The notes under the pieces: generated by a model
The model's database searches: none
Seen by the model: the letters and a program-made list of their open reading frames with translations, nothing else
What the model was told of the DNA's origin: nothing
In this document: piece by piece, positions 1,993 through 52,207 of the stretch
How positions within the stretch are numbered: the first letter of the stretch is position 1
Layout of the letters: the number at the start of each line of letters is the position of its first letter
Made by a program: the position numbers and the translations under genes
Origin: Octopus vulgaris
Lineage: Eukaryota
Length of the DNA stretch: 64,000 nt
Reading direction: 5' to 3'
Assembly (NCBI GenBank): GCA_951406725.2
Contig: OX597828.1
Span: 25,048,001 to 25,112,000, forward strand

Positions 1993-2275
1993 ATAAAGGA
2001 TCGTAGGTAAGGCCAAATAATGGGAAGTAGATGCAAGATAAATCACAAGAAAACAAATATGTGAATTAATATAGACTTACCTTGTATTCAATCTTTCGGG
2101 GTTATGACCCCATTTTCAAGAAATTGACGAATGCTGCCGATGTTTCTTGAAAATGGTGTCATAGCCCCGAAATATTGAAAACAAGGTGAGTCTACATTAA
2201 TTCACATATTTGTTTTCTTGTGACTTACCTTGCATTTACTTCACGTTGTTTTGGCCTTACCCACCATCCTTTATA
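1993..2275. mobile_element. Fold-back element (~130-bp inverted arms) with an HHR-like motif on each arm; putative non-autonomous PLE
   Basis: 1993-2125 is the reverse complement of ~2143-2275; abuts (TA)n. Confidence 0.75.
2142..2182 (+). ncRNA. Minimal hammerhead ribozyme-like motif, U3-A8 variant
   Basis: tttc-TTGAAAA-tggtgtcatagcccc-GAAA-TA-TT-gaaa; mirror copy on the minus strand at 2084-2123 with stem II gggg/cccc. Confidence 0.6.
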
Positions 2276-2298
2276 TAATATACATATATATATATATA

Positions 2299-2561
2299 TT
2301 GAAGAGTGCAGTTCGATTTTAACAGTTATTTTTTCAATGGAAGTGACAGAGGAGCATATTCGACATATTTTGCTTTATGAGTTCAATAAAGGCAACAACG
2401 CAACGGAAAGTGCGAGGAATATTAATGCAGTACATGGGGATCGGACAAGAAGCGCAACTAGCAGAAAAGCTTGGATTTGGTCATTCAACCATTCACCGTC
2501 ACCTGTGTGCCATCGAGAAAGTCAGCAAATTGAGTCAATGGGTTCCTCACAAACTTTCCGA
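2299..2561 (+). mobile_element. Internally deleted, TIR-less fragment of the same mariner family as 1-1231
   Basis: Encodes MEVTEEHIRHILLYEFNKG...DRTRSA joined directly to LAEKLGFGHSTIHRHL...WVPHKLS; (TA)n on both sides. Confidence 0.9.
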
Positions 2562-2593
<32 letters not shown>

Positions 2594-2942
2594 TCACACA
2601 TGGCGGACACTCCCGTCGAAGATGATGGATTACTGTTAAACGAGAAGCAAGAAAAAGAATCCAGCCAAATAGACAATTAACAAACACCCTCATTATTACT
2701 ATCATTCACGAACGTTTGCGATTTATTCACTTCACCAGGTGACTCCTCGGGTCTCCAAAAGCAATATGGATATAAACATGAGTATGACGTATTAAACTAG
2801 CATGCGATCTAGCTGAGAAATCACGATGTGGACAATGGTGTTCTGCGTGCAGACTGTTCTGTCCGTTCCTTTCTCTGTGATTCCGTAGTTGCTCTTGATA
2901 TTGTACACTTTAGGTTTTAAGATTGTGAAGCCGGAAAATGCA

Positions 2943-2989
<47 letters not shown>

Positions 2990-3150
2990 GAAAAATAAAG
3001 ATTCAGATAGAATTAGGTCATTGAAAAGATATACACCAGGTAGAGTTGGATAACACTGTGGTTCCGGTCTATGTATCAAATAGGATATTCCGGTTGTGTA
3101 CACAGAGAAATCCAACCCTATGAGTATTTAAATCCATAAATCTTGAAATA

Positions 3151-4441
3151 TCAGGTCATCCCATAAGTTCTGTCCGATTTTACCTTTACCTTTTTTTAAA
3201 ATTGAATGGAATTTAATAGTGTTTTAGAATGTCTAATGGAATTAAAAATTATTTTTATGCATTTGTGTACATTTAAACTAATTAAATATTGTTTTACAGA
3301 ATACTAGAATTTAAATTTCTTTGATTAAAATCCTTCTAACATGGAAGTATCCAAAGGCACATAATGCTTTATGAGTACAAAAAAATAAACTCTGCAGCCG
3401 AAGCGACTCGAAATATACACTCAGTTTATGGGAAAGAATGCTTGAATGCAAGAACTAGCAGATGATGGTTTGCAAAATTAGGAATTGGAGATTTTAGCCT
3501 TGAAGATGAAGATCGAACAGGACATTCAGTTGAGTTTGATGATAAGCTCCTTGAGACTTTACTTGAAGAAAATCTCGCATTATCAGTTGAAGAATTGGCA
3601 ATAAAGCTTAGTTCAAACCATATAACTATTAATCATCCTCTTCAACAACTTGGAAAGGTTCCTAAACTTGGAAAATGAGTGCCTCATGAATTGTCCGAAA
3701 GCAACCGCAAATCCCTAGTTGACATCTGCTCTTCTCTCCATTCCGCGAACTCATTTCACCCTTTTTGGATAGACTTGTGACTGGTGACGAAAAATGGATC
3801 TTCTATCGAAATGTTAAACGTCGTAAACAGTGGCTGGTATAAGGGAAAACGCTCAACCACAACCGAGAAGGGAGCTTCATGGGAAAAAGGTTCTTCTCTC
3901 TATCTGGTGGGATTGCAAAGGAGTAATTCACTTTGAATTGTTACCACCTAATGCAACAATCAATGCTCAAGTCTACTGTCAGCAATTAAAGCGTTTAAAC
4001 CAAGCTTTGAAGCGTTTAAACCAAGCGTTTAAACCAAGCGTTTTAGTGAATCGACTGATGTTCCATCAGGACAATGCACGACCCCACACTGCAAAGATCA
4101 CATCACAGAAGATCGAAGAGCTTGGTTTGGTAAAAATTCCTCATCCACCTGATCCTCCCGACCTTGCTCCTTCAGGCTACCATTTGTTTCGTAGTTTACG
4201 GAATCATTTGGAGGATATAACTTTCGCAAGCCAGGAGGAGATCGAAACTGACATTTCAGAGTTCTTCACTTTGAAACCAAAAGAGTTTTACATTGATGCG
4301 ATTAAAAAGCTTGTAAATAGATGGAAGGAAGTCATAGATAATCAGAGACAGTACATTGATGATCAAATTTCAATTAAAAGTAACATTTGATCACTTGTTT
4401 TCTTTATTCGAAATTCGGACAAAACTTATGGGATAACCTGA
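3151..4441 (+). mobile_element. Full-length (~1.29 kb) mariner with frameshifted transposase pseudogene
   Basis: TIRs TCAGGTCATCCCATAAGTTCTGTCCGA / TCGGACAAAACTTATGGGATAACCTGA; motifs VPHEL, VTGDEKW, FHQDNARPH, PDLAPSGYHLF; stops and frameshifts in the 5' half. Confidence 0.95.
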
Positions 4442-4459
4442 TCAAACTAAATAAGGATA

Positions 4460-4655
4460 TACATACATATTTGTGTGTGTGTATATACATAAATATTTAA
4501 GTATATACATATATACATGTTTATATGTATGTGTGTGTACAATATGTATGTTATATATTTTTATATACTTTATATATACATGTGTATATGCATATGCGCA
4601 CATGATGCATGTAATAAATATATAATGATGCCCGTTATTTTTAGTGAGTGCACAA

Positions 4656-4689
<34 letters not shown>

Positions 4690-4895
4690 GTACGTGTGTA
4701 TATACACATATGTGTGTGTAATATATGCATGTAAATATATATATATTTACATATATAAAAGTATATATAAATATTTGTATATATAAGTATATATATATAA
4801 GTATATGTATATATATATAATAGAAATATTAAAATTACTAAGTCTCTCTATATGTATGTATATACGCACACACATACATACATACACAGATACTG

Positions 4896-4944
<49 letters not shown>

Positions 4945-4996
4945 AACATACAAACATACATACAAACATACATACATACATACATACATACATACA

Positions 4997-5029
<33 letters not shown>

Positions 5030-6680
5030 CTTCTATTGGGAGGGAAAGATAGAGTGAGAGTGAGAGTGAATAACGATGGCGAGATTGATAGCGTGGCGAA
5101 TCGTAACATGGAAACATGGAAAGGATAAAAAAAAATAAAATCTACCAAACTTGAGGGAAAGAAATAGAGAGAAAGAGAGTATGAAAGAGAGAATAAAGGG
5201 AGGATGGAATAGAGAATAAAGGGAGGATGGAATAGAGAATAAAGGGAGGATGGAATAGAGAAAGAAAATGGTTTGATAAAAGAATAGACATGAGTGAAAG
5301 AGATTATGTTTAAACAAAAAAACGAAGAAGGATAGGAGCAGAGATAGTTAATGGTGCATTACAAGTGAATTTGTTTAAGCACCAAGGGTCTTATTGTGTA
5401 TGAACGCCAGAATAAAAAATATGGCCGCCATTTTTATTGGTCTTTGCTTTTTAAGTCTTCTACTTCGATGCTGTTGTTGTTGTTATTGTTGTTAGCATTT
5501 GTTTGTTTCTTGATGTTGGTTTTATGTTGTTTGTTTTCGTTGTTTGTTTTTTGTTGTTGTTTGTGTGTGTGTGTGTGAGCGTGTATGTGTTTATGAGCGT
5601 GTATGCGTGTGTACGTGTGCGTATGTGTGTGCATCAGTGTGTATATGTATGTGTGTATGAGTGTGTATGTGCGTGTGTATGAGTGTGTATGTGTGTATGT
5701 CTGTGTGTATGAGTGTGTATGTGTGTGCGCGTGTGTGTCTGTGTGTGAATGAATGTGTGAATGAGTATGTGTATGTATGCGTGTTTTGTAGTTCTGTAAG
5801 TAACTGTGTGGGTATATGTGAAAGAGATTGTGTGTTTATGTGTGTGTATGTGTGTGTCTTTGTGTGTGCATTTGTGTGTGTGCACGTGTGTGTAACAATG
5901 AGGTTATATGTGAGAGTGTGTGCATTTGTAAGTATGTATATGTGTGATTTAGAGACTTTGTGGATGTGTGTGTGAGTGTTTGTGTGATAGAGAAAATGTG
6001 TGTGTGTGTCTGTGTTTGTGTGTTTGTATGTGTATGAGAGAGAGGAAGAGAGAGTGTGTGTAAATGTATATGTGTAAGAGTATGTTAATGTGTATGCTTG
6101 TGTATGTATGTGTAGTAGTATTGATGATGGTGATAGTGACGATGGAGGTGGCGAAAGTAGTGGTGGTGGTGGTGGTGGTGTTGGCGGTGGTGGTGGTGGT
6201 GGTGGTGGTGGTGGTAGTGGTGGTAGTGGTGGTGGTGGTGGTGGTGGTAGTGGTGGTGGTAGTGGTGGTGGTGGTAGTGGTGGTGGTGGTGGTGGTGGTG
6301 GTGGTGGTGGTGGTGGTGGTGGTGGTGGTGGTGGTGGTGGTGGTGGTAGTGGTGGTGGTGGTGGTGGTAGTGGTGGTGGTTGTGGTGGTGGTAGTGGTGG
6401 TGGTGGTGGTGGTAGTGGTGGTGGTGGTAGTAGTAGTGGTAGTGGTGGTGGTGTTAGCGGTGATGGTTGTTGCAGTGGTGAAGATGACCAAAGTTGTGAT
6501 GGTGATGATGGTAGTGATGGTGATAGAGAAGAGTTGTGACAGAACATAGAACAACAGCACAGTTTTCAGTTTATGTGCACCACCAGCACACCAGCATCCC
6601 CCACCACCCTCATCATCACCACCACCACTATCACCACCATCTACAGCCTCATCGTCATCATCATCATCATCATCGTTATT
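4460..6680. repeat. Compound microsatellite / low-complexity block: (TA)n, (TACA)n, (GT)n-like, (GGT)n ~6160-6450, (CAT)n
   Basis: Directly visible; explains the poly-P/T/V/G ORFs. Confidence 0.95.
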
Positions 6681-6689
6681 TTTATTATT

Positions 6690-6990
6690 ATTGATTTACA
6701 TCTCAGAGCGATCGGTCTCGTCTGCTCTGGTTGATTGTGTGAGGGCGGACAGCAGCTTGTTGTCTTGTTGTCAGCTGTCTCACAGGGTCGCTTTCCGCAC
6801 ATTATAAGCTTTGATAATTGGTTGTTAATTATTGTGGAAGTCATTCAACATCTTAAGTACCAATCTCAAAATCGCAGCCTCCCCAACAGAGCAGCTTTTG
6901 GGGGCCTCCTCTGTTCTCATGTCAATTCCGATTTCTCTAACATATTTCTCGAACTTAGTTGTTAGTGATCCGAGTGACTACTAGTTAGTG
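6690..6990 (-). mobile_element. 3' end of an RLE-type (R4/Dong-like) LINE
   Basis: Minus strand reads KFEKYVREIGIDMRTEEA and, after frameshift, ...ILRLVLK, like the C-terminal Q(K)AALLGTARILR motif; followed by a UTR and a (TAA/TGA)n tail. Confidence 0.55.
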
Positions 6991-7102
6991 ATTCAGTTCC
7001 ACAGCGTGGCCGCTTAGGCAAGTGTCTTTCTTCTACTATAGCCACGGGCCGACCAAAGCCTTGTGAATGGATTTAGTAGGCGGAAACTGAAAGGTGCCCG
7101 TC

Positions 7103-7158
<56 letters not shown>

Positions 7159-8580
7159 AACCGATGGTGGTGTGTTGACGTCCCCGTAACTTTGCGGTTC
7201 GGCAAAAGTCACCGATGGAATAAGTACTAGGCTTACAAAGAATAAATCCTGGGGTCGATTTCTTCGACTAAAAAAAACCCTTTAGGGTCTGCTCCAACAT
7301 GATCGCAGTCAAATAACTGAAACAAGGAAAACAATAAAAGAATTAAAAAATAAACTCTATCAATTCGAATTTTTTTTTAAGCCATTTAATTGTATATTTG
7401 TCAGATTTTCATAATAGCTGTCTTACATGAATCGCAATTTCATAAGTGTTCCACATTTCAAAATACTTACGAGTGGACTTTCTTTAACCCCCATGACAAC
7501 GGGTTTTAATCAGGCAACTAGGTTGCACTGACGGTAATCATCTTAGCTGAGGTCAGCAATTAGCGCACGACAACGGTTTGGCGTATATTTGCGTCAACCG
7601 CTTTGAAGCATCCACTGTTTATTTATTTCAACTGCCATCACTGCGAGGACCGTAAACCCAGCGAAAATGGCATAGCTGGATGTGATTGGAAATTCCGTGA
7701 AGGACCAGAAGAATTTGCTGAGCGTGTACGAATTTGATGGAAATGGTGGTGTAACTGCTGCTTTTATACTATTATGGTGAGGAAGTCTTGAACTGAGTTG
7801 TAAATATTTACATGGAAAGTCTTACAAACCTATAAGATTCCTTGAATTTTACACAGTGGCCTCTATTATGGATTCTGCGAATGACAGCAGATATTTATAT
7901 CAACCGGAACACAAACAGCTACAAAACCGCAGCAGATAGGGTTGCGTATATTTTCGTCACCTGATTCAAAGCAAGTACACAGTGCACATAAATTTACGTC
8001 AACCGATGTTATTTACGGGTTAAAACAAAACCTTTTAATCCATATCTTCCCAAACGTCTACCCACGCACTCATCATACCTTTGAAACACAAGTCACCACA
8101 ATTTTTTTTTCCTTTTTGTTATTTTTCGTCATGTAGTGCTCCACATTTTGAAACACTTGTAATTTGTATTTTTACCGAAAAATATTTGGAAAGGCTGTCA
8201 TTATTCCAAATGTCTGTGTGTTTAGAGCATTTCTTCTAAGCTTTCTTTCTCTCTTGTTCTAATTTATAGAAAGTGGTTTGCTTAATAGCTGTGCTGTAAT
8301 TATTATAATTACTACTCGAGTGTTAACGATCTTATAATAGGAAAATTTGGATGCATACTTTTGCTATTATGGGTAATATCAGGAAATATGGCGTACGTAT
8401 AATGATTATAATTTAAATTAGCTATGAGCAACAAAAGCAGGTCGTTACAAAATCTGCTTCTGTTGCTATAGTTAATTTATACACAGCCCACCAGCTTTCC
8501 GGGATGCCACTGGTTGTTCGGTCAGTATTATTCTTTATCGGTTTGACTGATTTTTTTGTCTGGCATTCGGCTTAGCTAGC

Positions 8581-8624
8581 TGCCACTGATGATCCGCAAC
8601 ACGGTGAAATTACGTGATATGGTA
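8581..8624 (+). ncRNA. Type-I hammerhead ribozyme motif, canonical core
   Basis: tgcca-CTGATGA-t-ccg-caaca-cgg-t-GAAA-ttacgtga-TA-tggta: stem I 5 bp, near-palindromic stem III (ATTACGTGAT), predicted cleavage after AUA at 8619. Confidence 0.7.
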
Positions 8625-9071
8625 GCGCTACCATCCGCCGGTGTGCTGTCAGTATTTAGTCAACCGATAACAGAATTTCGATGCATTTTAGTATTTGTTG
8701 TCTGCACGAAATGATTTTCCGGTATGATTACAATAATCTAAATTAGGTCTGATGTGCTAATTAATAATTATAATTTAACTTTTATCAAATTTCTTGGTAG
8801 TTTTACAATGTGATGAAAAGAATCCTAATTTTTGCAATAAAAATATTTATTACTTTAAAATAAAATTAAATAAAGTGTTACACTCTAATGTAATGTATAC
8901 AGTGTATATATTACACTATGGGGATACAGTGTAGCATTGTACGATGTTGCTGCTGGTGTTGTTGCTGTCATTGTCATCTTTTATTATTTTTTACTTTTTT
9001 CAGTCACTGGACGGTGGCCATGCTGGGACACAACCTTAAAGGGATTTTAGTCCAACGAATCGCCCCCAGTA

Positions 9072-9124
<53 letters not shown>

Positions 9125-9130
<6 letters not shown>

Positions 9131-9645
9131 AATAATAATTAAGAGCATCTAAGAGATACCACCATGCTAGATATAGCAGCCAAAACTTGACTCTAAAGCC
9201 ACATTAAATATTCATACAGCACCAGGAGAGAAGACAAAGAGACAAAATAAACCAGTAAAAAAATTACTGGATAATTCCAGATCCCAGATTTCTGACTCTG
9301 CATACGTGCATTTATATGTATGTATACGTTCGTATATGTAAGTATTCGTATGTTGTATATTTGTATTTATATGCTATCTGAGTATATTCCACTGATGAAG
9401 GCAAAGCATTTCTTATGCAGAGTCAGAAATCCGGGATCTAGAATTATCCAGTAATTTTTTGCTAGTTTATTTTGTCTCTTTGTCTTCTCGCCTGGTGCTG
9501 TATGAACATTTAATGTGGTTTTAGAGTCAAGTTTTGACTGCTATATCTAGCATGGTGGTATATCTTTGATACCCTTAATTATAATTTTAATAATAATCAT
9601 TACCTTTGAGGTTTTTATTCCCATGCTGGCCACATGCATACATAT
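9125..9645 (+). mobile_element. Fold-back putative non-autonomous PLE (~180-bp arms, ~110-bp spacer, 3' tail) nested in a SINE
   Basis: 9125-9304 is inverted versus 9415-9592; lies between (TA)n and (GATA)n and splits a family-A SINE (~8990-9073 / ~9730-10090). Confidence 0.75.
9386..9444 (+). ncRNA. Type-I hammerhead ribozyme motif, canonical C3-G8 core
   Basis: attcca-CTGATGA-a-ggc..gcat-ttctt-atgc..gtc-a-GAAA-tccggga-TC-tagaat; the inverted arm preserves tggaat, the perfect stem-I partner. Confidence 0.7.
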
Positions 9646-9646
9646 T

Positions 9647-9726
<80 letters not shown>

Positions 9727-11520: not shown

Positions 11521-11667
11521 CTTTTTCTGTGTATCTTTCTGTTGAAGAGCGTAGGCTCGAAACGTAAAAGACTTGTTTTATTTATATTCCTGAGCGCCAT
11601 ACTAATACAATTGTTTGTTTGTACTCCACCTGCCTTCGTCTTTTGTTTATTTTCATAAAGCTTCCCG

Positions 11668-13645: not shown

Positions 13646-13682
13646 CTATTGAAAAGGTTGCAAGACGCAACGAAAATTTTAG
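13646..13682 (+). ncRNA. Minimal hammerhead-like motif, U3-A8 variant
   Basis: cta-TTGAAAA-g-gttgc-aagac-gcaac-GAAA-AT-TT-tag, followed by AATAAA; perfect 5-bp stem II. Confidence 0.6.
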
Positions 13683-17754: not shown

Positions 17755-18396
17755 TTAGTCAACCTCCTCCGATACTGGAGCAGTCTTTATACCAGTGTTT
17801 TGTAGAGTAACCTCTTTCCCCTGACTATCAGATTCACAAATACTGCTTGCTTGAATACCATTCTCACACATCTCATTCTCCACACTTTCATTCATCTCAT
17901 TCTCCACACTTTCATTCATCTCATTCTCCGCACCTTCATTCATCTCATTCTCCACACCTTCATTCATCTCATTCTCCACACTTTCATTCATCTCATTCTC
18001 CACACTTTCATTCATCTCATTCTCCACACCCTCATTCATATCATTCTTCACACCCTCATTCATCTCATTCTTCACACCCTCATTCATCTCATTCTTCACA
18101 CCCTCATTCATCTCATTCTTCACACCCTCATTCATCACACCTTCATTCATTTTATTCTCCCCATCCTGTGCATCATTCATCTTATTCTCAATATCCTTAA
18201 CATCGTTTAATTTATTCTCGCTATCGAAATATTTAACACCGTTATTCGAGTCTTTAGCATGCATAACATCAGCTGTTTGGGTTCCAGCTCCGTGGGTATC
18301 TTGAGGAACTTCGCAATCTTCAATTTCAGTATCTTCACTAGAAAAATCCTCTTCTGAAAGACTTTCAGACTCCAAATCCGAATATGGTATTTCAGG
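17755..18396 (-). CDS. Uncharacterised gene G2, terminal exon (acidic tail with NEGVENEM repeats)
   Basis: Acceptor ttttctctctttag, phase 0, PEIPYSDLESESLSEED...SEEVD*; AATAAA ~35 nt downstream (plus-strand tttatt at 17717). Confidence 0.8.
   Translation of the reverse strand, partial: PEIPYSDLESESLSEEDFSSEDTEIEDCEVPQDTHGAGTQTADVMHAKDSNNGVKYFDSENKLNDVKDIENKMNDAQDGENKMNEGVMNEGVKNEMNEGVKNEMNEGVKNEMNEGVKNDMNEGVENEMNESVENEMNESVENEMNEGVENEMNEGAENEMNESVENEMNESVENEMCENGIQASSICESDSQGKEVTLQNTGIKTAPVSEEVD
17869..18132 (-). repeat. Coding 24-bp minisatellite, 11 units of NE(G/S)V(K/E)NEM
   Basis: Visible tandem repeat of (ca)ttcatctcattctccacac-type units, in frame in the G2 last exon. Confidence 0.9.
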
Positions 18397-27189: not shown

Positions 27190-27563
27190 ACAGTTCTATA
27201 TTTAAGAGATGAGGAATTATGTACATTATTTACATTTGACGGATATTTGTCCGCATCTTGTCTGTTGTTAGCACAACATTTTGGCTGATATACCCTCCAG
27301 CCTTCATCAGGTGTCTCGGGAAAATTTCGAACCCGGGTTCTCATTCCTAAGGTATTTTTCGATGTTATTCAGGTCACTGCTTGGAATAGAACTCGGAATC
27401 TTCGGGTTAGTAGCCCGCGCTCTTAACCAAGATTCCAAATTCGATTCCAAGCAGTGACCTGAATAATAACGAAAAATACCTTAGGAATGAGAACCCAGGT
27501 TCGAAATTTCCAAGACATCGGATGAAGTCAGCCGAAATGTGTTAAGATGAGGACAAATATCTA
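27190..27563 (-). mobile_element. tRNA-head + hammerhead fold-back element, copy 2 (degenerate), inside a hAT-like MITE remnant
   Basis: Same sequence and same 3' terminus (ACAGTTCTATATTTAAGAGATGAGG on plus) as 40776-41476; HHR on minus strand 27270-27315; inverted second arm ~27428-27563. Confidence 0.8.
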
Positions 27564-29958: not shown

Positions 29959-31637
29959 TTTTTTTTAGTCAACCATATTGATAACATATGTAACAAATGA
30001 AAGAAGCAAAACACCACCACTAACACCTAACAACTCTTGAAGGTCTTCACAGCGAAGTTCTGCGTTTCAAATCTCTGGATTGAACACCCAGTCTGGAGCT
30101 AACTTCCATATTCCTCAAAATGTTTGAAAAGGAATTTGTTCCGCCTTCCTAGTTACGTCATTGACAAAGAAAAAGGAAAATTAAAAGACATGTGGTCTTG
30201 TAATGTGGTCAAGGTATGAAACTCGAAGAAATATTCCCCGGACATGCTTCACTCAGGTTTAGTGATCAGTGGACATACTTCGATGTCATTTGAACCAAAA
30301 TCCCTATCTCAGGATAATATAGGCTCTATATGAAGTATCATCCCAGATAAGGTTTTATTATTGTTACCGAGGGTTAAGAAATTAAAGTTTCATTCAAATA
30401 TTGCGAATAATTTAATCAACGGATACGCAGGTTTCTCTAAGCAAGAGGCAAGCCTCTGGAGAGGCTTGTAAAAGGAAACAAAATTTAGCAAAAGGGTCAC
30501 GCATTAGTGCCTAAGTAATACATAAAATTTACTAAAAAATTCTTTCACAAACGGCAATTCTACCCAATTCCTTAACCCCTACACCATAAAGTATTAATAG
30601 TTATTCTGAACGTTTGCCAATCAGAGTTTACAGCATATTGTAAGACGGGTGTAAAATAGTAACAATTTACTTAGAGGAGCGGGAGATTGGCAGCAGAAGA
30701 AATTAAACTGCTATATCTTCGTACCACCCAACAACAAAAAAAATCAGAAATCTTTTCGGATTTTGGTATGGAGGACATTTAGTAATGATTCTTGTAGGAA
30801 TAAAATATGAAGAAAGGATAAAAAAGAAAAAGTGATAAATATAAAGCAAAAATAAAGGCAAATAAAAATTGATAATTACAGATAAACAGCGGGAAGTCGA
30901 TAAAGATACAGTAAATTATTCGGATAAACTCTTGCAAAGCGATTAAAAAATGATGAAATAGTTGGTAGCCGTGTAGTAAAATCTGCCTTAAACGAGGTGA
31001 AACCTTTTCGCCATCGACATCCAGGAACAGTTCTAAAGGCGCCATATTGCTTTAGCAGGCACCCGACTTCTCGATTTCTTATCTGCAAGATATCCACACA
31101 CCGTCAAAAATATTAGTCCTCTGAATAATCTTTGGTTACATTTAATAACGATTCCAATATCCAGTGGAATTATAGCGAAATTTCGTGCTTTCTTCAGAGG
31201 AAAAATCTACTTTCATGAGACAGGGGTGTAAAGGTCGTTTCCACTCTCTTTTCCTTTGGAATACCCGGGCACGCAAGTATGTGTGTGTGTGGGGGGGTGT
31301 AAGACTAAATGGAAGTAAAATATTACATTTAATGCAGTCAAAAGTTCGAAATCCGATTAATTCAAAGTCAAATGTAATTGCATACACGCGCAACGTGTGT
31401 GTGTGTGTATGTGTGTGCATGTGCGTGTGTGTCCGCGAGCGAGCGATTTTTCTTTCATTTCTTTCAGTTTCGGACTATGGCCAGACTGGAGCACCGCTTT
31501 AAAGGATTTACACGATCAAACCGATCCCAGAAATGATTTTATATATATATATTATGACAGCATTAAATATAATATTTTACTTCCATTTAGTCTTACACAC
31601 ACACGCACACACACACACACATACCACACACACATAC

Positions 31638-31726
<89 letters not shown>

Positions 31727-31729
<3 letters not shown>

Positions 31730-32150
31730 AAAATAGTAAAGAGTGAAAAAACGACAGAAGGCTTAAATGTTAAAAAATATATATATTTGCGTCAAAATGT
31801 CTGGAGAATATTGGAAAAAATTTTTTCCCTCCTTAAAATGACATAATTTTATAATTTTTAAAGAAATACCGGTTTCGCAGTTAGCTCTTCAAATTTCTTG
31901 TGACTTAATGTTTATTTTTAATAACGTAATCCTTGTATTTTTGCTACGGAGAGTTCTAAGTAAGGGAAATTTCTTTAAAAATTATAAAATTATGTCATTT
32001 TAAGGAGGGAAAAAAATTTTTCCAATATTCTCCAGACATTTTGACGCAAATATATATATATTTTTTAACATTTAAGCCTTCTGTCGTTTTTTCACTCTTT
32101 ACTATTTTCTTATATATTCACCCACGTGCTTTACCAAACAAACTTTCTTA
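31727..32150. mobile_element. Fold-back putative PLE element in (TA)n; HHR-like motif on minus strand 31861-31899
   Basis: Arms 31727-31868 / 31969-32113; minus strand aagaaat-TTGAAGA-gctaactgc-GAAA-CCGG-TA-tttctt. Confidence 0.7.
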
Positions 32151-32189
<39 letters not shown>

Positions 32190-32861
32190 AATATCTGGTA
32201 TTTGTGTTATCCGTCTCTTTTTCTGGACTGCTAAGCTACGAAGACGTAAACAAACCAACACAGGTTGTCCAGCAGTGAGGGGAACAAACACAAAGACAAT
32301 GTGAGCCCTCTTCTCCGAATAATATTCCCTATATTCTTTCTCTTTTCAAAACTCTGCAATGCCCCTCACGCCACTACTGGTCCATTACTGTGCTTTCCCT
32401 TCTTCCAAATCAATTAAGTGCGCCCTCTTTTCGTAATCTTACAATATTCGACCCCTTTTCTGAGCTCTACAATGTGCACTCCTTTCTCTCAGTTCTATAT
32501 AGTACTTTCCAGTTTTTCCAACCCTATAATTTGTGCTCCAGGCCCACCCTTTCCTCATGTGCCTCATTTCTTTCTCAATGTTACAATGTACGCCCTATAA
32601 TTTACACACTTTTCAGCCAGCCCTATAGTGTACGCCCCTTTAACAATTCCTTTAACAAATTCTTCCAGACATCGCTCTCTTTTCATCAACTGAAAAAAAA
32701 AATACCACTGGGAAGTTCAGTTCAAATTCCGATGAGGTTGACTTTTGCCTTTCATATTTTCGGGGTCGATAAATTAAGTACCAATGAAGCACTGGGGTCG
32801 ATCTAATCGACTAGTCCTCTCCCACCAAATTTCAAGCCTTGTGCCTATAGTAGAAAGGATA

Positions 32862-32904: not shown

Positions 32905-33400
32905 TTATTATTTTTTTTCTTCTTTTTTCAAATTTGCTTCCATTTCTTGCCGAGTGTCTTCCCGACTCCTAGGGCAAAGAAACTCATAGTATACATTGGT
33001 AGGCCATTAAACTAAACTCAATAGTTCGTTCATTTTTTTTTTTTTAAGTTAAATTAAAATACATGGGTAGTAATAGTTCTCACAGCGACAATGCTCTTCT
33101 CAATACGTGTGATGTACCAGTTAAGACAATCTTTTGCACTTCTTGCAGGGATGGTAAGCCTGGGATCATTCTCATATAATTTTCGGTTCCCTTCTTGATC
33201 ATTCCTAGTGCTCCTACGATCACTGGTATTGTAACCGCCTTGAGATGCCACATTTTCTCAATTTCAATGAGCAGATCTTTATATTTTCTGAGCTTGTCAA
33301 ACTCTTTCGCCGAGGTATTATGATCACAGGGGATGCTCATGTCGATCAATAAGCAAACTTTATTGTTTTTGTCTTTCACAATTATTGTTTTTGTCTTTCA
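32905..33400 (-). mobile_element. 5'-truncated R4/Dong-like RLE LINE in (TAA)n
   Basis: CLLIDMSIP..KEFDKLRKYKDLLIEIEKMW..IPVIVGALG..QKIVLTGTSHVLRRAL, an RLE C-terminus; (TAA)n on both sides. Confidence 0.85.
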
Positions 33401-40775: not shown

Positions 40776-40961
40776 ACAGTTCTATATTTAAGAGATGAGG
40801 AATTACGTACATTATTTACATTTGACGGATATTTCTCCTCATCTTATTTGCTGTTAACACAACGTTTCGGCTGGTAAACCCTCCAGGCTTCATCAGGTGT
40901 CTTGGGAAATTTCGAACCTTGGTTCTCATTCCTAAGGTATTTTTCGATGTTGCTATTATCA

Positions 40962-41003: not shown

Positions 41004-41476
41004 TCACTGCCAGTAATCGAACTCGGAATCTTTAGGTTCCTCTTAACCACTACGCCATATGCCCGTGGGCAATTATGGAGTGAATTTTTAGGGTTTATAA
41101 ATCTAATATTTTCTTATCTTGGCATTTGTGCTGCTTCACAACAACCTCCTAAGCAGACTGAGTGCATATGGGAACTGGTTATAAGGAAGGATAGGAAAAT
41201 ATTGGATTTATAAGCCCTAAAAATTCACTCCATAATTGCCCACGGGCGTGTGGCGTAGTGGCTAAGAGCACGGGCTACTAACCCCAAGATTCCGAGTTCG
41301 ATTCCAATAATAATAATAATAATAATAATAACATCGAAAATACCTTAGAAATGAGAACCCAGGTTCGAAATTTCCCCAAGGCACTTGATGAAGGCTGGAG
41401 GGCATATCAACCGAAACGTTGTGTTAACAACAAACAAGATGAGGGCAAATATCCGTCAAATGTAAATAATGTAAAT
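40776..41476. mobile_element. Head-to-head inverted element: tRNA-derived Pol III head + (AAT)n + hammerhead ribozyme on each arm, with TSD
   Basis: Arms ~40805-41120 / ~41188-41476; A box TGGCGTAGTGG 41251, B box GAGTTCGATTCC 41294; TSD AATGAAAAAA(A)TATT at 40761 and 41477. Confidence 0.85.
40856..40901 (-). ncRNA. Minimal type-I hammerhead ribozyme, canonical core
   Basis: gacac-CTGATGA-agcctgg-agggttta-ccagcc-GAAA-CG-TT-gtgtt; mirror copy at 41380-41425 on the plus strand (C3U). Confidence 0.75.
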
Positions 41477-43535: not shown

Positions 43536-43578
43536 AATAATAATGATAATAATAATGATAATAATAATAATAATAATG

Positions 43579-43616
<38 letters not shown>

Positions 43617-43725: not shown

Positions 43726-43777
<52 letters not shown>

Positions 43778-43932: not shown

Positions 43933-44024
<92 letters not shown>

Positions 44025-44203
44025 TGTATGTATGTATGTATGTATGTATGTATGTATATGTATGTATGTATGTATGCATACATATATGTATGCATGCATA
44101 TATGTATGTATATTTATAAATATATATATATATATATTATAGATATGTATATCATTTTAATATAATATATTATGTAAATTGATATATAAATTGGTATATA
44201 TAT

Positions 44204-44259
<56 letters not shown>

Positions 44260-44359
44260 CATGCATATATGTATGTATATTTGTAAATATAAATATATAC
44301 ATACTATAGATATGTATATCATTTTAATACAATATAATATGTAAATTGATATATAAATT

Positions 44360-44404
<45 letters not shown>

Positions 44405-44563
44405 AATATGATATGTATGCATAAATGTATGATATATGTATGTATGTATGTGTGTACGTATGTATATGTGTGTGTGCATAATATATAACATTGTATGTAT
44501 GTATTCATCGTGTAACTGTAATATATAATGTTATATATGTAACAAAGTGTAATGCGTAATATA

Positions 44564-45391
44564 CAGGGTGGGTGGAAAGTAACTAGACATTAGAAATTGC
44601 TTATATAATTTTTAGAATCACCGAAGTCATAAAGGAAACATTCTTTAAACAGATAACACTAATGGAGATTTCTTATTTTCATATTGTCTTATTTCTTAGT
44701 TTCCAGATGGTCCGTCGTATGGAATTCTATTGTTTTGGTTCAGAGATGGTGGCGTGCATGGAAATGTAAGCCTGCAACACTATGTCCAGAGACAATGAGA
44801 AGTCATGCAAAGCTGATGACCACAGGCTCTGTGAACGATGCAAGAAGTGGCCGTCCGACAATATCCCGATTAGTGAAGAACGTGGCGGCAACAGTGCAGG
44901 AAATGCTTAATCGTAGCCCGCTCGTGAAGGTGGACTAACAAGACACACAATACGTACGGTGTTGCATAAAGAATTGAATCTTCGTCCGTGGAAATCCCAT
45001 TACGTGCAGGAGCTAAAACCTGAAGACTGCGACCGCAGAAGTCCAGAACTTCAAGAAGTCCAGATCTCACTCCATGTGATTTTTACCTGATGGGGGTCAC
45101 ACAAAAGAGGAGGGGTACAAGACAAAACCTCGCACGCTTGAGGACTTGGAGACACGGATTCAGGAGGTCCTCAATGATATCCGAGACGACGCCCTTCAGA
45201 AGGTTGCTCATTCCATCCCTGGCCGTTTGAGGAAACTAGTTGATGCCACCGTTGCGTACGTTAAAATATGAAGATTTACTTTTATTTTTCCATGTAATAA
45301 AGAACGTGTATTATTTGTTTCAATAAATTTGTAAAAGGAATATAGATTTTATTACCAATTTTTAATGCCTACTTACTTTTCACCCACCATG
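44564..45391 (+). mobile_element. Internally deleted Tc1/mariner (rosa/DD41D-like) element
   Basis: TA-CAGGGTGGGTGGAAAGTAACTAGACATT TIR with matching right end; RSGRP and RSPDLTPCDF..G motifs. Confidence 0.8.
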
Positions 45392-45478
45392 TGTATATAA
45401 CATAATATTATATGTCATATGTATGATATATATGATATATATACTATATAAAACATATATAATATTCTCCTTAATAAT

Positions 45479-45527
<49 letters not shown>

Positions 45528-45818
45528 TATATGGAGTGGACTATTAGTTAAATTTAATACCAATATATTTGAAAGTACTAATTATGTTGTTACAACCATT
45601 GAACCACACATATATGAATGCGTATACGTGAATATTTATAGAATATGTGTATATATTTAATTCAAAATATACATACATGAAAACAAATACTGTCGAAGGA
45701 GAAGGAGAAAAGAAGAGGAGGACCTATGCAAATTAAAAATATGATTTATAAAAATAAATAGAATTTTATCAATAATTATATCGGTGGAATATCGGATACG
45801 GATCATACATATGCATAT

Positions 45819-45859
<41 letters not shown>

Positions 45860-46314
45860 TCACACGCACATGTTTGTGTGTGTGTGTGCGCGAGTGTGTG
45901 TGTAGTTGAGCTTTGGTAGAATCGTGCAAGTAAATTTTTATTGGCTGTACTAGGATAACTATTCTATTACCCCACCTACTATCAATTAAAAGTATCTAAG
46001 TCTGTTCCTAATATATTTCATTTATATATCAACACCTTTGATCACTGGTGTGTGTGTGTGTGTGTGTGTGTTAGTGTGTATACACTATGTTAGAATGTGT
46101 GTTTATCATATGGCCAATATATGTTTGTGATTGTGACAAGTGTGTGTTTATGAGGTTACGTTTCGTTTATGCATGTCTACTGTTTAAATGTATATTTATA
46201 CGTGTCTGTGTGTGTATATATATGTATATATTAATATTAATATTTCACTTAGACATAGCGAAACTAATAACCTGGTGTAGAACTCAATATATACATACAT
46301 ACATATACATATGT

Positions 46315-46386
<72 letters not shown>

Positions 46387-46533
46387 GCAAATTTCCTGCG
46401 TGGAAATACACCTCCTCTTTTGTTTTATATATATATATATATATAACTATATATATGTGTGTATGTATGTATGTATATTTCATTTGCATGCGTATGTGTT
46501 TGTGTTTGCTGGTACGGGTGAGTCCGCATGTTG

Positions 46534-46581
<48 letters not shown>

Positions 46582-46786
46582 TATGCATTGGAAAAGATAA
46601 TTTTTTTTTTATTTATTTATTTATTATATTGTTTCCCCATCACCGCCATAATTACTTCCCCTTCTCTCACCTGATAAGGTACAGGTAGAGATCAGAACTA
46701 TAATTAACTTCTAATTAATAGTAATCTAAATAGTAACTAAATTCAACCAATGATGAATTAACCCCAAAATAAAAATGGCGTCATCA

Positions 46787-46894
46787 TTAATACTGGAGTT
46801 TGAAGAGTGGGTTGTCTTCGTTGAGGATGTCCGTGACGTAGACCGCACGTCCGTTCGGTGCAACAGCAATGTCGTGGGGCATAGCTTTGTTGTT
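46787..46894 (-). CDS. PAL: PAL terminal exon (NNKAMPHDIAVAPNGRAVYVTDILNEDNPLFKLQY*)
   Basis: ttcttttccag acceptor, phase 0; MPHD metal-ligand motif; TAA followed by TGA TGA. Confidence 0.9.
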   Translation of the reverse strand, partial: NNKAMPHDIAVAPNGRAVYVTDILNEDNPLFKLQY

Positions 46895-47801
46895 CTGGAA
46901 AAGAAGAATAGCAGGAGACAAAAATTAAAGAATATCTTGGTTTTATTTTTCGTTTTGGGGTTTGCGGGTGTATGGGATAGGCAAGTATTCTGAGAAATTG
47001 TTGGTGGAGGGGGCAACAATATACGAGTTTGTGTATGAAGTGTGTTTGTTTGTTCCTTCTCGAGCCATGCTTGGCTCATAAGGGCCGGTTTCCCGGTTTC
47101 CTTGGCGTATTGGTTCCCCACCTGGACGGGACGCCGGTCCGTCGCAGGTGAGCTGCAAGATGCAGGAGGGGAGAGTAAGAGAAAGTTGTAGTGAAAGAGT
47201 CAGCAGAAGTTCGCCATTACCTTATGCCGGAGCCGCGTGAAGCTTAGGTGTTTCGCTCATAAACACACACACATCGCCCTGTCTGAGATTCGAACCCGAG
47301 ATCCCTCGACCGCGAGTCTGCTGCTCTAACCACTAGGCCTTGTGCCTCCACTCAAGTTTGTGTATATGTATGTATAAGTATATACATGTTTGTGTGTGTC
47401 TGTGTGTATCTGTGTGTGTCTATGTGTACATATATGTTTAATTAAGTGATCAATTAATTATAGTTGCAGAAATGGCTGTGTGGTAAGAAATTTGCTTCCC
47501 AACCACATGGTTCCGGGTTCAGTCCCACTGCGTAGCACCTTGAGCAGATGTCTTCTACTATAGCCCTGACTGCAGTCCTGTAACCCTTTGGTCAGCCTTC
47601 GACTGACGAAAAGTTTTGTCTCGTGACAGGATTTGGTAGTCGGGAACTGAAAGAAGTGTGTGTGCGTGTGTGCATTAATGCTTTGTGATGACACTGAAGA
47701 ATCCTTATAGACTGTATAATTATTAGTATTGTTGTTGTGACTACAATTTAATTAATTAATGAATTGATTATTTAATTAATTAATCTCGTGATTAAACTCA
47801 C

Positions 47802-47908
47802 CATGTTTCTTCCGGTGTGCCAGGTAGCAATAACTTCACCGTTCAGTAAGCCGATGGTACTGCCAAAACCTCGTCCAGACAACATACTGGCCACGTAAAG
47901 GACATTCA
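47802..47908 (-). CDS. PAL: PAL exon (MNVLYVASMLSGRGFGSTIGLLNGEVIATWHTGRNM)
   Basis: ttccacag acceptor, gtgagt donor; phase 1->0. Confidence 0.85.
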
Positions 47909-48042
47909 CTGTGGAATAATATAGAAAGAGAAAGACAGAGCGTGATTGTTTGGAAGTAAGAGAAAGTGTATAAGAATCAGACAGATGGGGCAGAGAAGTC
48001 TGTGTTTCTAATAGTCTTTTTCTAATATTACATATTAAGCAT

Positions 48043-48381
48043 TGCAGCGTGGAAGGTGTTTATAAGCCATTTAAGAAACACACAAAAGCCGTTCGATTCA
48101 CTTCAACATTTAAGTTTAATTTGTCAAAATATTTTCGTCGCTAAAATCCGCGACCTATTCACTGACAAAAATCCGTGCTGCATCACGGATTTTTGTCAGT
48201 GAACAGGTCGCGGATTTTAGCGACGAAAATATTTTGACAAATTAAACTTAAATGTTGAAGTGAATCGAATGGCTTTTGTGTGTTTCTTAAATGGCTTACA
48301 AACACCTTCCACGCTGCAATTGTTTTCGTTTCAGCACACGATCTCAGATCAAATTACTTGCTATGCGAGTACATCTCCGTA
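48043..48381 (+). mobile_element. Young fold-back putative PLE element with 11-bp TSD and ~60-nt 3' tail
   Basis: Near-perfect palindrome 48043-48319 centred ~48180; ATATTAAGCAT at 48032 and 48382. Confidence 0.85.
48192..48241 (+). ncRNA. Hammerhead-like motif, G3-C8 swapped core
   Basis: tttgtca-GTGAACA-g-gtcgc-ggatttta-gcgac-GAAA-ATAT-TT-tgacaaa: 7-bp stem I, 5-bp stem II, palindromic stem III. Confidence 0.72.
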
Positions 48382-49779
48382 ATATTAAGCATAGTCATCA
48401 AAATACATTCATTATGAAATAGAAAGAGAAACAGAGAGGGGGAAAAGGAGGGAGAGAAACAGAGAAATATATAGAGAGAGAGCTTTTGCCAGACAGAGAG
48501 AGACAGAGAGAGACAGGTAGCGAGAAAGACAATGGGTTTGTGTGATATCCATTGGTATCATAATTTAAATATGAATTTATAAAATGCTGTTGAAGAAAGT
48601 GGGGTTATATAGAACTTCTAGTGGTCTTATTTTAAATTTGGGTTTATGAAATATGTTCCGGGTTCTTTGTTTGAATCAATGTTTTCAACCGTTTTTTTTA
48701 CATATGGACCCCTTTGGTTATTATTTTATTGGGGTGGGTCTTCATAAAAATTCGATGTTTAATGAATCCTATTATATTTATATAGTAGAGGCGCGTGGCT
48801 TAGTAGTTAGGGTGTCGGCATCATGATTGTAAGATTGTGGCTCCGATTCCTGGACCGGGCGACGCGTTGTGTTCTTGAGCAAAACACTTCATTTCACGTT
48901 GCTCCAGTCCACTCAGCTGGCAAAAATGAGTAACGCTGCGATGGACTGGCGTCTCGTCCAGCTGGGGAACACATACACCATAGAAACCGGGAAACCGGGC
49001 CCATAAGCCTGGCTAGGCTTTAAAAGGGCGCATTTATTTATTTATTATTATTATTATATTTACATAATTAAATATTATTAAGATTTGTATAAAAGAATTG
49101 TTTAAATCTTTTGTGTATTTTAGGAGTTATACCAATTTATTTTATATTAAATTTTAACAACACAACAAAATCTTATACGGAACCCCACAAGGGCCATATG
49201 AACCCTGGTTGACAACCACTGTTTTAAATTATGAAGCACTGTTAAGGCCATAGTCTGAATAGACTGGTGCAGGCCTCATGATCCTAATGCTGCCGGTTAA
49301 ATTCCTGGACTGAGCGAGTGATATGTCCTTACGCAAGTCACTTCATTTCACACTACTCCAGTTTACTCAGCTGAAACGAGTATCAGCTGAGTGACGGTGC
49401 ATCTCTTACCCTTTCCCTCTTGTAGTTACATCCTTGATATTCTCTTACATCAAAGAGCGAGTGAAAGCTTGTTTATACCCCCTTCTTGACTACATACGTT
49501 TCTAAAACAATTAGCAGAAGTACTTATGGTACTTGCTGCCAACTTACATTCACTTGCAAGTGACAGCTATACATTAGAGGACATGCTTTAAATATAGGTT
49601 TATGAAGTACCTGGGTGGGTTGAATGTAAGGTACACCAAGCTATAACACTTTTTTCTCTATTTTATGGAGTTGAAACCGGAACACTCTCTAAAGCTTGAG
49701 CTGAGAAGAGTTATGCATATATGATGATACAGCTGTGAAAGATTACGAATATCGCTCTGTTTGAGAAGATCAGGAACGA

Positions 49780-50000
49780 AGCGATCTCCCGGCATGCTGG
49801 TCTGCTTCCTACGATGGAAATCCTCATTGATAGAAATTTACATTGGTTGGGACCCCTTCATAGGATGGACTACAACAGACTCCCCCAGACAACTCTTTTA
49901 CTCCCAACGAAGCAAGGAGGAAAAGAAACCATGGAAGATTTCGTCGGAGACATAAAGACAGTGCAAAAGGGAATATCGGAATATGAAATGGAAAAGAATT
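49780..50000 (+). mobile_element. Decayed RTE-like LINE C-terminal fragment
   Basis: LHWLGPLHRMDYNRLP, then RQLFYSQ in another frame, resembling RTE LRWLGHVxRM..RLPKQLLY. Confidence 0.5.
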
Positions 50001-50105
50001 GATCACAATAAATGGCAAACTCAAAAGAAAAACCGAACAGCATGAATAAAGATTATCCAGTCATGCTAAGGCCTTGCCTAGTCATAGTCACGACAACTGA
50101 CTGCA

Positions 50106-50133
<28 letters not shown>

Positions 50134-50136
<3 letters not shown>

Positions 50137-50624
50137 TGTACATTGTTTTGTCTTGGTATAAAAGATGGGCTACAGCAACTATTCTGCTCAATACCACAGA
50201 TTTGCTTGTCAGTTGTTTGACCTTAACCAGTTGAGCATGTCCCTTAGTGGCTGACGATATGTGCATCTCTGATCACGAGCAGAAGTAGTGGGGGAGCATC
50301 ATAGCCATGTGTTGAGAGGGATTCTTTGGGGTTTGAATAGTTCACCTCTGGAAACATGGGTGGTTCTTTCAACATCATTAAGCAACCCTTATTCAGGGAC
50401 CGTTTGAGCGGGATGGGCTACTCAACCTGAAGAAAATTCTAACTGGGCCCCACCTGCAAGGTCATGCGCTGTTTATCTTGATATGAGATCGCCATGTCGC
50501 GCACATATGGTTGTGATGCATGTGCCTGGTGTACCCTTATCAGACGGGTAGTCATGATGGGTATATTGGGCTTCGTATATTTTACCCCAGTGTCACTTTG
50601 ATGGCATGAACTGCTCTCTCACTC

Positions 50625-50626
<2 letters not shown>
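50134..50626 (+). mobile_element. ~490-bp insertion in (TAA)n, probably a non-coding LINE 3' region
   Basis: Complex sequence bounded by (TAA)n on both sides; family not identified. Confidence 0.45.
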
Positions 50627-50673
<47 letters not shown>

Positions 50674-51172
50674 GGTCTCTATGAAGTATTGTTAGGAGCC
50701 ACATTCTAAATGTGGGTTAATAGAGGACAGGTAAGGATCAAAGATTAAATGTGATTCTATAAAGTACTGTTATTGATCAGACAGAAAGATCATTGTGGAG
50801 GCCGACATGAAGAGTATTCTCGAGGAAAACTCCCTTTCATAGACATCATTGGGCACGACTCTCCAGAACTGCCATCAATGAGCCTGGAGTTGCGATGGAA
50901 GTTGATCGTACAGTGGATCCCGACTGGTTTAAAATTTGTTGTTCAACCACGTCGAAAGATGGTGGTTGTCGTCGTCATCGTCATGGTGTAGGTCGTCGTC
51001 GTGGCGGCGGCGGCGACGACGATGATGGTCATGATGATGATGATGATAATGATAAAGTACTGACAGAGGCCATAGTTTAAATTAAGGTCCATAAAATATT
51101 GTTAACGATCATAATTTTTAACTGTATCAGTATAAAGTACAGACAGGAATCATAGAATAAATGTAGATTTAT

Positions 51173-51338
51173 AGGCGCAGGAGTGGCTGTGTGGTAAGTA
51201 GCTTGCTTACCAACCACATGGTTCCGGGTTCAGTCCCACTGCGTGGCACCTTGGGCAAGTGTCTTCTACTATAGCCTCGGGCCGACCAAAGCCTTGTGAG
51301 TGGATTTGGTAGATGGAAACTGAAAGAAGCCCGTCGTA

Positions 51339-51396
<58 letters not shown>

Positions 51397-51617
51397 TGTG
51401 TGTGTTTGTGTGTCTGTGTTTTTCCCCAAGCATTGCTTGACAACCGATGCTGGTGTGTTTATGCCCCTGTTACTTAGCGGTTCGGCAAAAGAGACCAATA
51501 GAATAAGTACTGGGCTTACTAAAGAATAAGTCCCGGGGTCGAGTTGCTCGATTAAAGGCGGTGCTCCAGCATGGCCGCAGTCAAATGACTGAAACAAGTA
51601 AAAGAGTAAAAGAGAGT
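51173..51617 (+). mobile_element. Full-length tRNA-derived SINE family A with internal (TA)n/(GT)n
   Basis: A box TGGCTGTGTGG, B-box-like GGTTCAGTCCC, CORE-like CCTTGGGCAAGT, tail AAGTAAAAGAG; many relatives (e.g. ~7000, 10637, 16930, 24820, 47470, 56725, 62080). Confidence 0.9.
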
Positions 51618-51755
51618 ACTGTCAGGGGTCATACTTGAAATGTAGATTTGCAAAGTTATGCTACGGCTTATCGCTCCAGTGTAGTTTTATAAAATACTAT
51701 AAGTCGCTGAGGGGAGGGGGTCCATAGACTAATTGTGTAAATATGAAGTACTTAC

Positions 51756-51868
51756 TGTTAGGATCGTACTTTACAGCATAGATACGTCCCAGCTGCTTTC
51801 TCACCAGAGACGACACGAATTTACCAGTTTCCTTTTCATCCTTCAGACCAGCCTTAAAGCACAGAATC
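51756..51868 (-). CDS. PAL: PAL exon (ILCFKAGLKDEKETGKFVSSLVRKQLGRIYAVKYDPN)
   Basis: tttccactag acceptor, gtaagt donor; phase 2->1. Confidence 0.9.
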
Positions 51869-51934
51869 CTAGTGGAAAGATGTATATATATATATATATT
51901 TAAAAAAGGAGATGTGGAACACGAGTTGTGATAT

Positions 51935-52207
51935 ATAAAAAAGGAAATGAAGAAAATGTTGACAAAATAATTTAAGTAATTTAAGTAATTTAATTAGGTG
52001 AAAGTTCTTTTTACCGGTTGCGCATTTGTTATGCTTATCAAAAGATTAGAGTTCCTTTCTGATAGATTTTTTTTCTCTTATAAAAAATCTATCAGAAAGG
52101 AACTCTAATCTTTTGATAAGCATAACAAATGCGCAACCGGTAAAAAGAACTTTCACCTAATTAAATTACTTAAATTATTTTGTCAGCATTTTCTTCATTT
52201 CCTTTTA
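51935..52207. mobile_element. Fold-back element in (TA)n with degenerate HHR-like motif (52109-52148)
   Basis: Near-perfect palindrome centred ~52075; TTGATAA-gcat-aacaa-atgc-GCAA-CCGG-TA. Confidence 0.65.

Follow-up and report, generated by a model that had tools for sequence, protein, structure and literature searches.

The stretch analyzed here, a microsatellite-rich window of 64 kb from the 2.8-Gb genome of Octopus vulgaris (contig OX597828.1, positions 25,048,001 to 25,112,000 of the forward strand), contains nine sites, all in repeat-rich non-coding DNA, that an earlier note had described as unrelated repeats sharing a hammerhead ribozyme layout with compensatory pairs between core positions 3 and 8. 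These motifs are minimal hammerheads, each belonging to the 3' end of a Penelope-like retrotransposon (PLE): three of the nine families were traced to open reading frames (ORFs) encoding a reverse transcriptase (RT) and a GIY-YIG domain, and the remaining six (those of cores 2147, 8586, 9392, 13649, 31892 and 40896) are likely to be PLEs too. The sites and related motifs of the window, each named by the position of its core, are as follows.

2142..2180, plus strand: minimal type I hammerhead with U3-A8, core 2147, in an arm of the head-to-head inverted repeat 1985-2282.
8579..8626, plus strand: type I hammerhead with C3-G8, core 8586; stem I is 7 bp long, stem II has a U·U at its base, and stem III is self-complementary.
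9386..9444, plus strand: decayed hammerhead with C3-G8, core 9392, stem I mismatched near the core, in an arm of the inverted repeat 9122-9595.
11534..11571, plus strand: minimal hammerhead with C3-G8 and a family-fixed U6, core CTGTTGA at 11539; 3' end of a PLE family.
13646..13682, plus strand: minimal hammerhead with U3-A8, core 13649; 3-bp stem I.
31861..31899, minus strand: deviant hammerhead with a family-fixed U3·G8 and no nucleotide 17 in register, core 31892, in an arm of the inverted repeat 31636-32205.
40856..40901, minus strand: classical PLE-type minimal hammerhead with C3-G8, core 40896; site of the 40896 family.
48192..48241, plus strand: minimal hammerhead with a swapped G3-C8 pair, core 48199, at the 3' end of a PLE family that is young; fold z = -3.86.
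48041..48320, both strands: two PLE 3' ends in head-to-head inverted orientation and 97% identical; the copy on the minus strand, with core 48162, has decayed to G3·U8.
52107..52148, plus strand: deviant hammerhead with U3-A8 and a family-fixed GCAA (C13), core 52113; 2-bp stem I in register.
52560..52601 (approximate ends), minus strand: decayed motif with the core CCGACGA (C4) at 52593, from a family that is sister to the U6 family; absent from the earlier note.
60576..60613, minus strand: the U6 family's second copy, with core 60608; beyond the coordinates of the earlier note.

All nine heptamers (9/9) lie where they had been placed, and six sites (2147, 8586, 9392, 13649, 40896 and 48199) have the proposed layout, with the core consensus N3-U-G-A-N7-N8-A, GAAA, U-H and a Watson-Crick 3-8 pair. 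The other three are hammerhead-derived variants, not consensus members. The core TTGAAGA proposed at 11542 is three bases off: stem I (TCTTT/AAAGA) sets the core as CTGTTGA at 11539, with C3-G8 and U6. The site at 31892, offered as a Watson-Crick example, has a U3·G8 wobble throughout its family and a stem I whose register has no room for a nucleotide 17. The site at 52113 does have U3-A8 but carries GCAA instead of GAAA family-wide, with 2 bp of stem I in register. A short self-complementary stem III that would permit dimers is present at 9/9 sites when G·U is allowed; dimer prediction yields a clean double hammerhead for 8586, nearly one for 52113, and other folds for the remaining sites. 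Six of the nine sites lie in head-to-head inverted repeats with a 5'-truncated partner copy. The 52113 motif occupies an arm of the repeat 51931-52214, with its partner at 52041 (minus strand), and 40896 has an opposite-strand partner at 41385 (plus strand) that has decayed to U3·G8, and another decayed copy at 27310 (minus strand). A tandem-repeat scan of the window detected no array over any of the nine sites, and no remnant of a PLE ORF was found within the window.

A chance origin of such motifs in an AT-rich, repeat-rich genome has to be weighed against scans with a descriptor (stem I, N3-TGA-N7-N8-A, stem II, GAAA, self-complementary stem III, U-H, stem I') that imposes nothing on positions 3 and 8, applied at a strict and a looser setting to the window and to a 1.464-Mb sample comprising the window, the adjoining 400 kb and 1.0 Mb from other places chosen blind; on this sample the strict setting required a pure Watson-Crick palindrome. 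In the window, the looser setting recovers five of the nine named sites and yields nine matches (five Watson-Crick), compared with a mean of 1.12 (0.33) and a maximum of 3 in 60 dinucleotide shuffles, whereas the strict setting yields three against a mean of 0.28 (maximum 3) in as many shuffles; given that a shuffle also reaches this strict count, the window alone is marginal. Across the 1.464 Mb, the comparison with shuffled sequence that the earlier note had called for gives 19 strict matches against a mean of 1.9 in 12 shuffles, so the shuffled frequency is not similar. Positions 3 and 8 form a Watson-Crick pair in 16 of these 19 (11 C-G, 4 U-A and 1 G-C) versus 8/23 in shuffles (Fisher p = 0.002, the matches not being independent); the control pairing of positions 3 and 7 is seen in 1/19, and five decoy cores give 1-4 matches each. 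When the strict matches are grouped by eye, 13 of 14 families or singletons are paired at 3-8, and, of the three unpaired matches, two are copies of paired families that have undergone decay. At the looser setting there are 53 matches, 32 of them paired at 3-8, against 14.8 in shuffles. A relaxed family-level pipeline (14/21 structured consensuses with a Watson-Crick 3-8 pair versus 5/19 in four decoy sets) was too noisy. The hammerhead layout pattern is thus real and above chance, and the 3-8 complementarity across families is far above chance. The covariation seen earlier therefore holds, with the reservation that two of the sites named for it are no examples and a third has an altered GAAA. 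A loose-descriptor background of about 15 matches per 1.46 Mb and the strict window count equalled by a shuffle are what chance can claim; the tenfold strict excess, the hundreds to thousands of exact copies in five of six families with no match to reversed patterns, and the fixed position behind PLE ORFs speak against it. For the families tested, the ORF link and the scan already refute chance, and as a general explanation we give it next to no credence.

The core letters were followed through the genome with exact patterns carrying N at the test positions; tallies out of 100 refer to the first 100 among the matches listed and were counted by eye. Exact copies number in the hundreds to thousands for five of the six families searched and 7 for the sixth, and reversed-pattern controls gave 0 matches. 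The 48199 family has 1,850 exact 35-mers, with G3-C8 in 98/100 of those listed, in 35/35 copies within ORF-linked loci, and in 9/11 sample copies of older subfamilies with an altered loop II; with these copies and its long open ORFs, the natural G3-C8 family is real. U3-A8 is found in 92/100 listed copies of the 13649 family (1,516 exact matches), in 7/7 exact genomic matches and 5/5 sample copies of the 2147 family, and in 97/100 listed copies of the 52113 family (1,798 exact matches), in which the tetranucleotide is GCAA in 96, GTAA in 4 and GAAA in 0 of 100 listed. C3-G8 is present in 8/11 sample copies of the 40896 family and in 2/2 each of the 8586 and 9392 families. The 31892 family (109 matches) has U3·G8 in 99/100 listed, the sole exception being a U3-A8 relative with an intact nucleotide 17. 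A hint of a switch between C-G and U-A in close relatives (L024 versus L255) rests on one copy and was not used. The listed matches of each DNA query share the flanks of that query, and the motifs are accordingly unrelated at the DNA level, as the earlier note had it; the traced PLE ORFs, in contrast, are homologous, with 22-47% identity.

The U6 family, the most abundant in this sample, has 14,944 exact 30-mers with T at position 6 versus 543 with another base, and C3-G8 in 96/100 listed. An alignment of 31 sample copies, each within 7 mismatches of the pattern, has T at position 6 in 29/31; position 7 is variable (14 T, 10 A, 5 C, 2 G), A stands at position 17 in 23, T in 5, C in 3 and G in none, and all other positions show scattered decay only. 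Positions 7 and 17 are the two that a hammerhead leaves free, and their being the only variable ones points to selection on the hammerhead fold. A coding constraint as the cause of U6 (GTN, valine) was rejected, given that position 17 creates a stop in that frame in 23/31 copies and no other synonymous site varies. A6 is present in a sister family. Separately, a fixed C4 core, CCGAAGA, was observed in a young PLE family with 1,151 exact matches (97/100 unchanged among those listed), represented by loci L280, L282 and L205 and by G000:C1:27841095, 27845366 and 27849637, with a tandem spacing of 4,271 bp; C4 subfamilies recur in two other families, so that C4 cores occur in three families overall.

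Of 30 loci identified by protein alone, 26 carry the G3-C8 motif on the strand of the GIY-YIG ORF, 933-1246 nt 3' of the point where this ORF ends; two of the remaining four are without the motif and two are without an ORF-end anchor, and open frames in this locus search reach 700-1,025 aa. Pfam RVT_1 gave no score on the G3-C8 ORF, where GIY-YIG alone scored; the RT is supported by a YVDD motif and weak BLASTP matches to the ORFs of the other traced families. Among loci chosen for holding two motif copies, L203 and L218 have the U6 motif downstream of the same RT/GIY-YIG ORF, and L208 has the C13 motif downstream of such an ORF, whose end is matched in L209 and L220. By eye, the ORFs of all three families contain, before the C-terminal GIY-YIG domain, a CX2-5CxxC linker, a feature assigned to Neptune/Nematis-type PLEs in the part of the source available (PMC8557442). 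Copies typically end in (TA)n, and these ends, together with the inverted pairs at 6/9 sites, fit PLE insertions as described there. A descriptor scan of 20 GIY-YIG loci found a motif in four (two U3-A8, one C3-G8 and one U6, the last of which may be a separate insertion), and further deviant or decayed motifs were seen by eye, in a set of families too small to support a statistical comparison. In the 3' region of the GIY-YIG family represented by L281 and L290, no hammerhead was found by descriptor or by eye. At locus L289, inspection by eye shows a divergent GIY-YIG ORF and, about 800 nt 3' of it, a type I hammerhead with C3-G8 whose stem II insert is unusually long.

The G3-C8 copies were picked by a pattern that stops short of the predicted cut site; all 30 span it and run at least 51 nt beyond, their tails mostly ending about 83-91 or 146-181 nt past it. 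That insertions carry the cut site intact indicates a template that was uncut or re-joined. At their other end, 20 of the 30 copies (L061-L090) start 6-26 nt upstream of the core, a region corresponding to 48170-48198 of the window. Many of these starts fall at AG/ATG, after a branch-point-like and pyrimidine-rich stretch in longer copies, and could mark a 3' splice site or a stop in reverse transcription. One locus, L063 (G000:C1:6251377-6254411), has an uninterrupted 182-aa frame lying head-to-head against the G3-C8 PLE end; the frame resembles dCMP deaminase and may be a retrocopy of a host messenger RNA made by template switching.

On balance, we favor a reading in which PLE 3' ends bear minimal hammerheads with slow predicted cutting and lenient selection on the fold and the 3-8 pair. 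Self-cleavage is predicted from sequence, and cutting of the parent RNA by each minimal hammerhead would be slow only, likely involving dimers or the protein of the element. Selection in the parent elements would keep the fold and usually the 3-8 pair (C-G, U-A and once G-C), but leniently, and insertion would use RNA uncut or re-joined at the predicted cut site. If so, weak cutting would cost little and may even be favored, such that U6, C13, C4 and U3·G8 cores could become fixed in successful families. Structurally, the 3-8 pair positions residue 8, and G12 and the 2'-hydroxyl of G8 catalyze cleavage after position 17, according to the part of the source available (PMC6155905). Selection on the 3-8 pair is supported, and the pair together with the freedom of positions 7 and 17 argues for selection on the hammerhead fold in the parents; the fixed U6, C13, U3·G8 and C4 cores argue that selection on rate is lenient. 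The inherited core changes in some young families would likely slow cutting. In the predicted monomer folds, the U6 core strand pairs with an AACG segment and, in the C13 family, stem I shifts onto U3-U4, which would be expected to slow cutting further. Contigs appear to break at position 7, and contigs cannot show RNA ends.

Several points weigh against this reading. Six of the nine families have no traced ORF, and cleavage of all motifs is predicted only. The scan matches are not independent, being in part members of the same families with homologous parents. One type III hammerhead had low activity when single letters of its CUGA region were changed, in the part of the report available (PMC9901934), so U6 and C4 may be dead, not slow. 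Support for the tree of U6 flanks is too weak to show whether A6 or U6 came first, and loop II of the U6 family is invariant as well, so the whole block may be held for a non-catalytic reason.

The earlier note had gone further, taking covariation as a sign of selection for catalysis. Strict selection for efficient self-cleavage in every parent, with U6, C13 and the like fully working in their own context, would account for the complementarity in 13 of the 14 groups of strict matches, for the free positions 7 and 17 of the U6 family, and for the presence of G3-C8, the very swap that rescues engineered ribozymes (PMC9901934, PMC11167929, as far as these sources are available). It is at odds with U3·G8 fixed in the absence of a nucleotide 17 in register, with GCAA combined with a 2-bp stem I, with C4 cores in three families, and with catalytic mutants that left PLE insertion in vitro unimpaired, as given in the accessible part of PMC11167929. 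Young ORF-bearing U6, C13 and C4 families and a 109-copy U3·G8 family with no ORF traced likewise argue against it, and we regard it as improbable; of the earlier claim, selection on the 3-8 pair stands and strict selection for efficient catalysis does not.

Conversely, the variant families might be dead ribozymes whose fold is inherited or kept for protein binding, RT initiation, a promoter or splicing, with U3-A8 the product of drift, via U3·G8, in a genome rich in AT, and G3-C8 a pair fixed under relaxed selection. The spread of several young families with cores predicted to be impaired, the mispaired U6 core and displaced C13 stem I of the monomer folds, and the fact that G3-C8 can be reached only by two transversions through mismatched states all lend this some weight. 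However, drift alone predicts neither cross-family complementarity nor freedom only at positions 7 and 17 with G17 excluded; G3-C8 persists across subfamilies with different loop II; and only G3 and C8 letters occur among the matches listed under four organism labels, a weak point that comes from contigs only. We consider this explanation, taken as a whole, doubtful. A wider working PLE core, comprising a natural G3-C8 pair in a young autonomous family and U6 and C13 cores that cut with dimer or protein compensation, is a tentative proposal that we hold to be unlikely as well.

With respect to abundance, 23 seeds, nine of them from the window and the set incomplete, identified 126 family remnants in the 1.464 Mb, namely 16 in the window, 35 in the neighboring 400 kb and 75 within the 1.0 Mb taken from elsewhere. 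The density is 1 per 4 kb in the window versus about 1 per 13 kb in the other 1.4 Mb (110 remnants), and strictly intact motifs occur about once per 85 kb. The estimate of one motif per 5-6 kb is thus about twice the genome-wide density, and extrapolation suggests some 200,000 remnants in the genome. The dispersed copies are 5'-truncated remnants, many of them decayed, rather than a working ribozyme complement, and single genomic copies are likely to be inert. The expectation that searches for CUGANGA alone would miss many motifs was borne out: 61 of the 126 remnants come from families with a core other than CUGANGA...GAAA, even with the C4 subfamilies uncounted. No Rfam hammerhead appears among the 150 listed of 177 window matches, which are microsatellite-driven microRNA matches, and Rfam at its gathering score gave 0 matches in 7 ORF-linked loci. 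Standard searches overlook about half of these motifs.

The window has several additional features. Directly 3' of stem I' of the 2147 motif (window 2180-2190) is AAG/GTGAGT, a consensus-like splice donor; PLEs carry introns next to the hammerhead. The inverted pair at 2147 lies among Mariner-type transposase remnants at 432-1148 (minus strand), 2190-2639 (plus strand) and 3827-4387 (plus strand). Two candidate NHL-repeat exons on the minus strand, at 52896-53279 and 57974-58357, overlap no named motif; we take them to resemble a peptidylglycine alpha-amidating enzyme. A minus-strand frame at 33083-33397 has no Pfam match and presumably resembles the C-terminal restriction-like endonuclease of a non-LTR retroelement (one lacking long terminal repeats). 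A 24-bp tandem array (11 copies at 96%) at 17869-18136 lies inside a 213-aa minus-strand open frame.

Hammerheads of this kind, including U3-A8, opposite-strand pairs and large hidden numbers, have already been published. In the parts of the 2014 report of Cervera and de la Peña that are available (PMC4209133), PLE motifs are inactive as monomers and weak as dimers, and the metazoan minimal hammerheads share with those described here the type I layout, an extra nucleotide between 9 and 10.1, a palindromic stem III, numerous families in each genome, copies that are mostly solo, and opposite-strand pairs. The same parts report U3-A8 covariation, with about 1,300 extra matches in Schistosoma mansoni, so that the covariation idea put forward in the earlier note was not new, and list a U3·G8 core for Saccoglossus kowalevskii 1 (Fig. 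S3); unlike the octopus set, they contain no natural G3-C8, U6, C13 or C4 families and, among molluscs, no cephalopod. The PAc (Poseidon) hammerhead of Anolis carolinensis is protein-assisted, and an engineered C3G/G8C partly restores its cleavage; catalytic mutants had no effect on insertion in vitro, and no RNA-seq reads end at the cut site (PMC11167929, available part). The octopus motifs resemble it as PLE pseudo-long terminal repeat (pLTR) hammerheads with insertions from unprocessed RNA and two tail end points, and differ in that G3-C8 is engineered in PAc and the natural family state here. In the CUGA region of one hammerhead, nothing but the G:C swap gave rescue, in the accessible portion of PMC9901934. 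Perreault et al. 2011 (PMC3088659, partial text) reported natural U3-A8 and an A6C variant with low but detectable activity, and a U10.1·U11.1 start of stem II such as that at 8586; those variants are rare single examples, in contrast to families of thousands of copies here, and the section on natural core variants mentions neither A6U nor A13C. Non-LTR retrozymes likewise have type I hammerheads derived from PLE pLTRs but form tandem arrays, unlike the solo or inverted-pair copies of the window (bioRxiv 10.64898/2026.07.22.740005, part available). Within openly searchable papers, G3-C8 hammerheads were found as an engineered variant only, and no paper on natural G3-C8, U6 or C13 PLE cores was found, subscription literature, including Lünse 2017, being largely outside the search. 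That study, going by its title, reportedly describes numerous small PLE-associated variants that cleave as dimers, and it may already list these cores.

The contribution here is the family-fixed variant cores, which are natural experiments on whether PLE hammerheads need to cut. One genome holds young G3-C8, U6, C13, C4 and U3·G8 families, and U6, U3·G8 and C4 occur beside close relatives with standard letters, so that cleavage rate can be compared directly with transposition success. If the wider working core, held above to be unlikely, is correct, these families would represent natural, tuned-down ribozymes, with hundreds of thousands of remnants that are invisible to searches with Rfam and CUGANGA.

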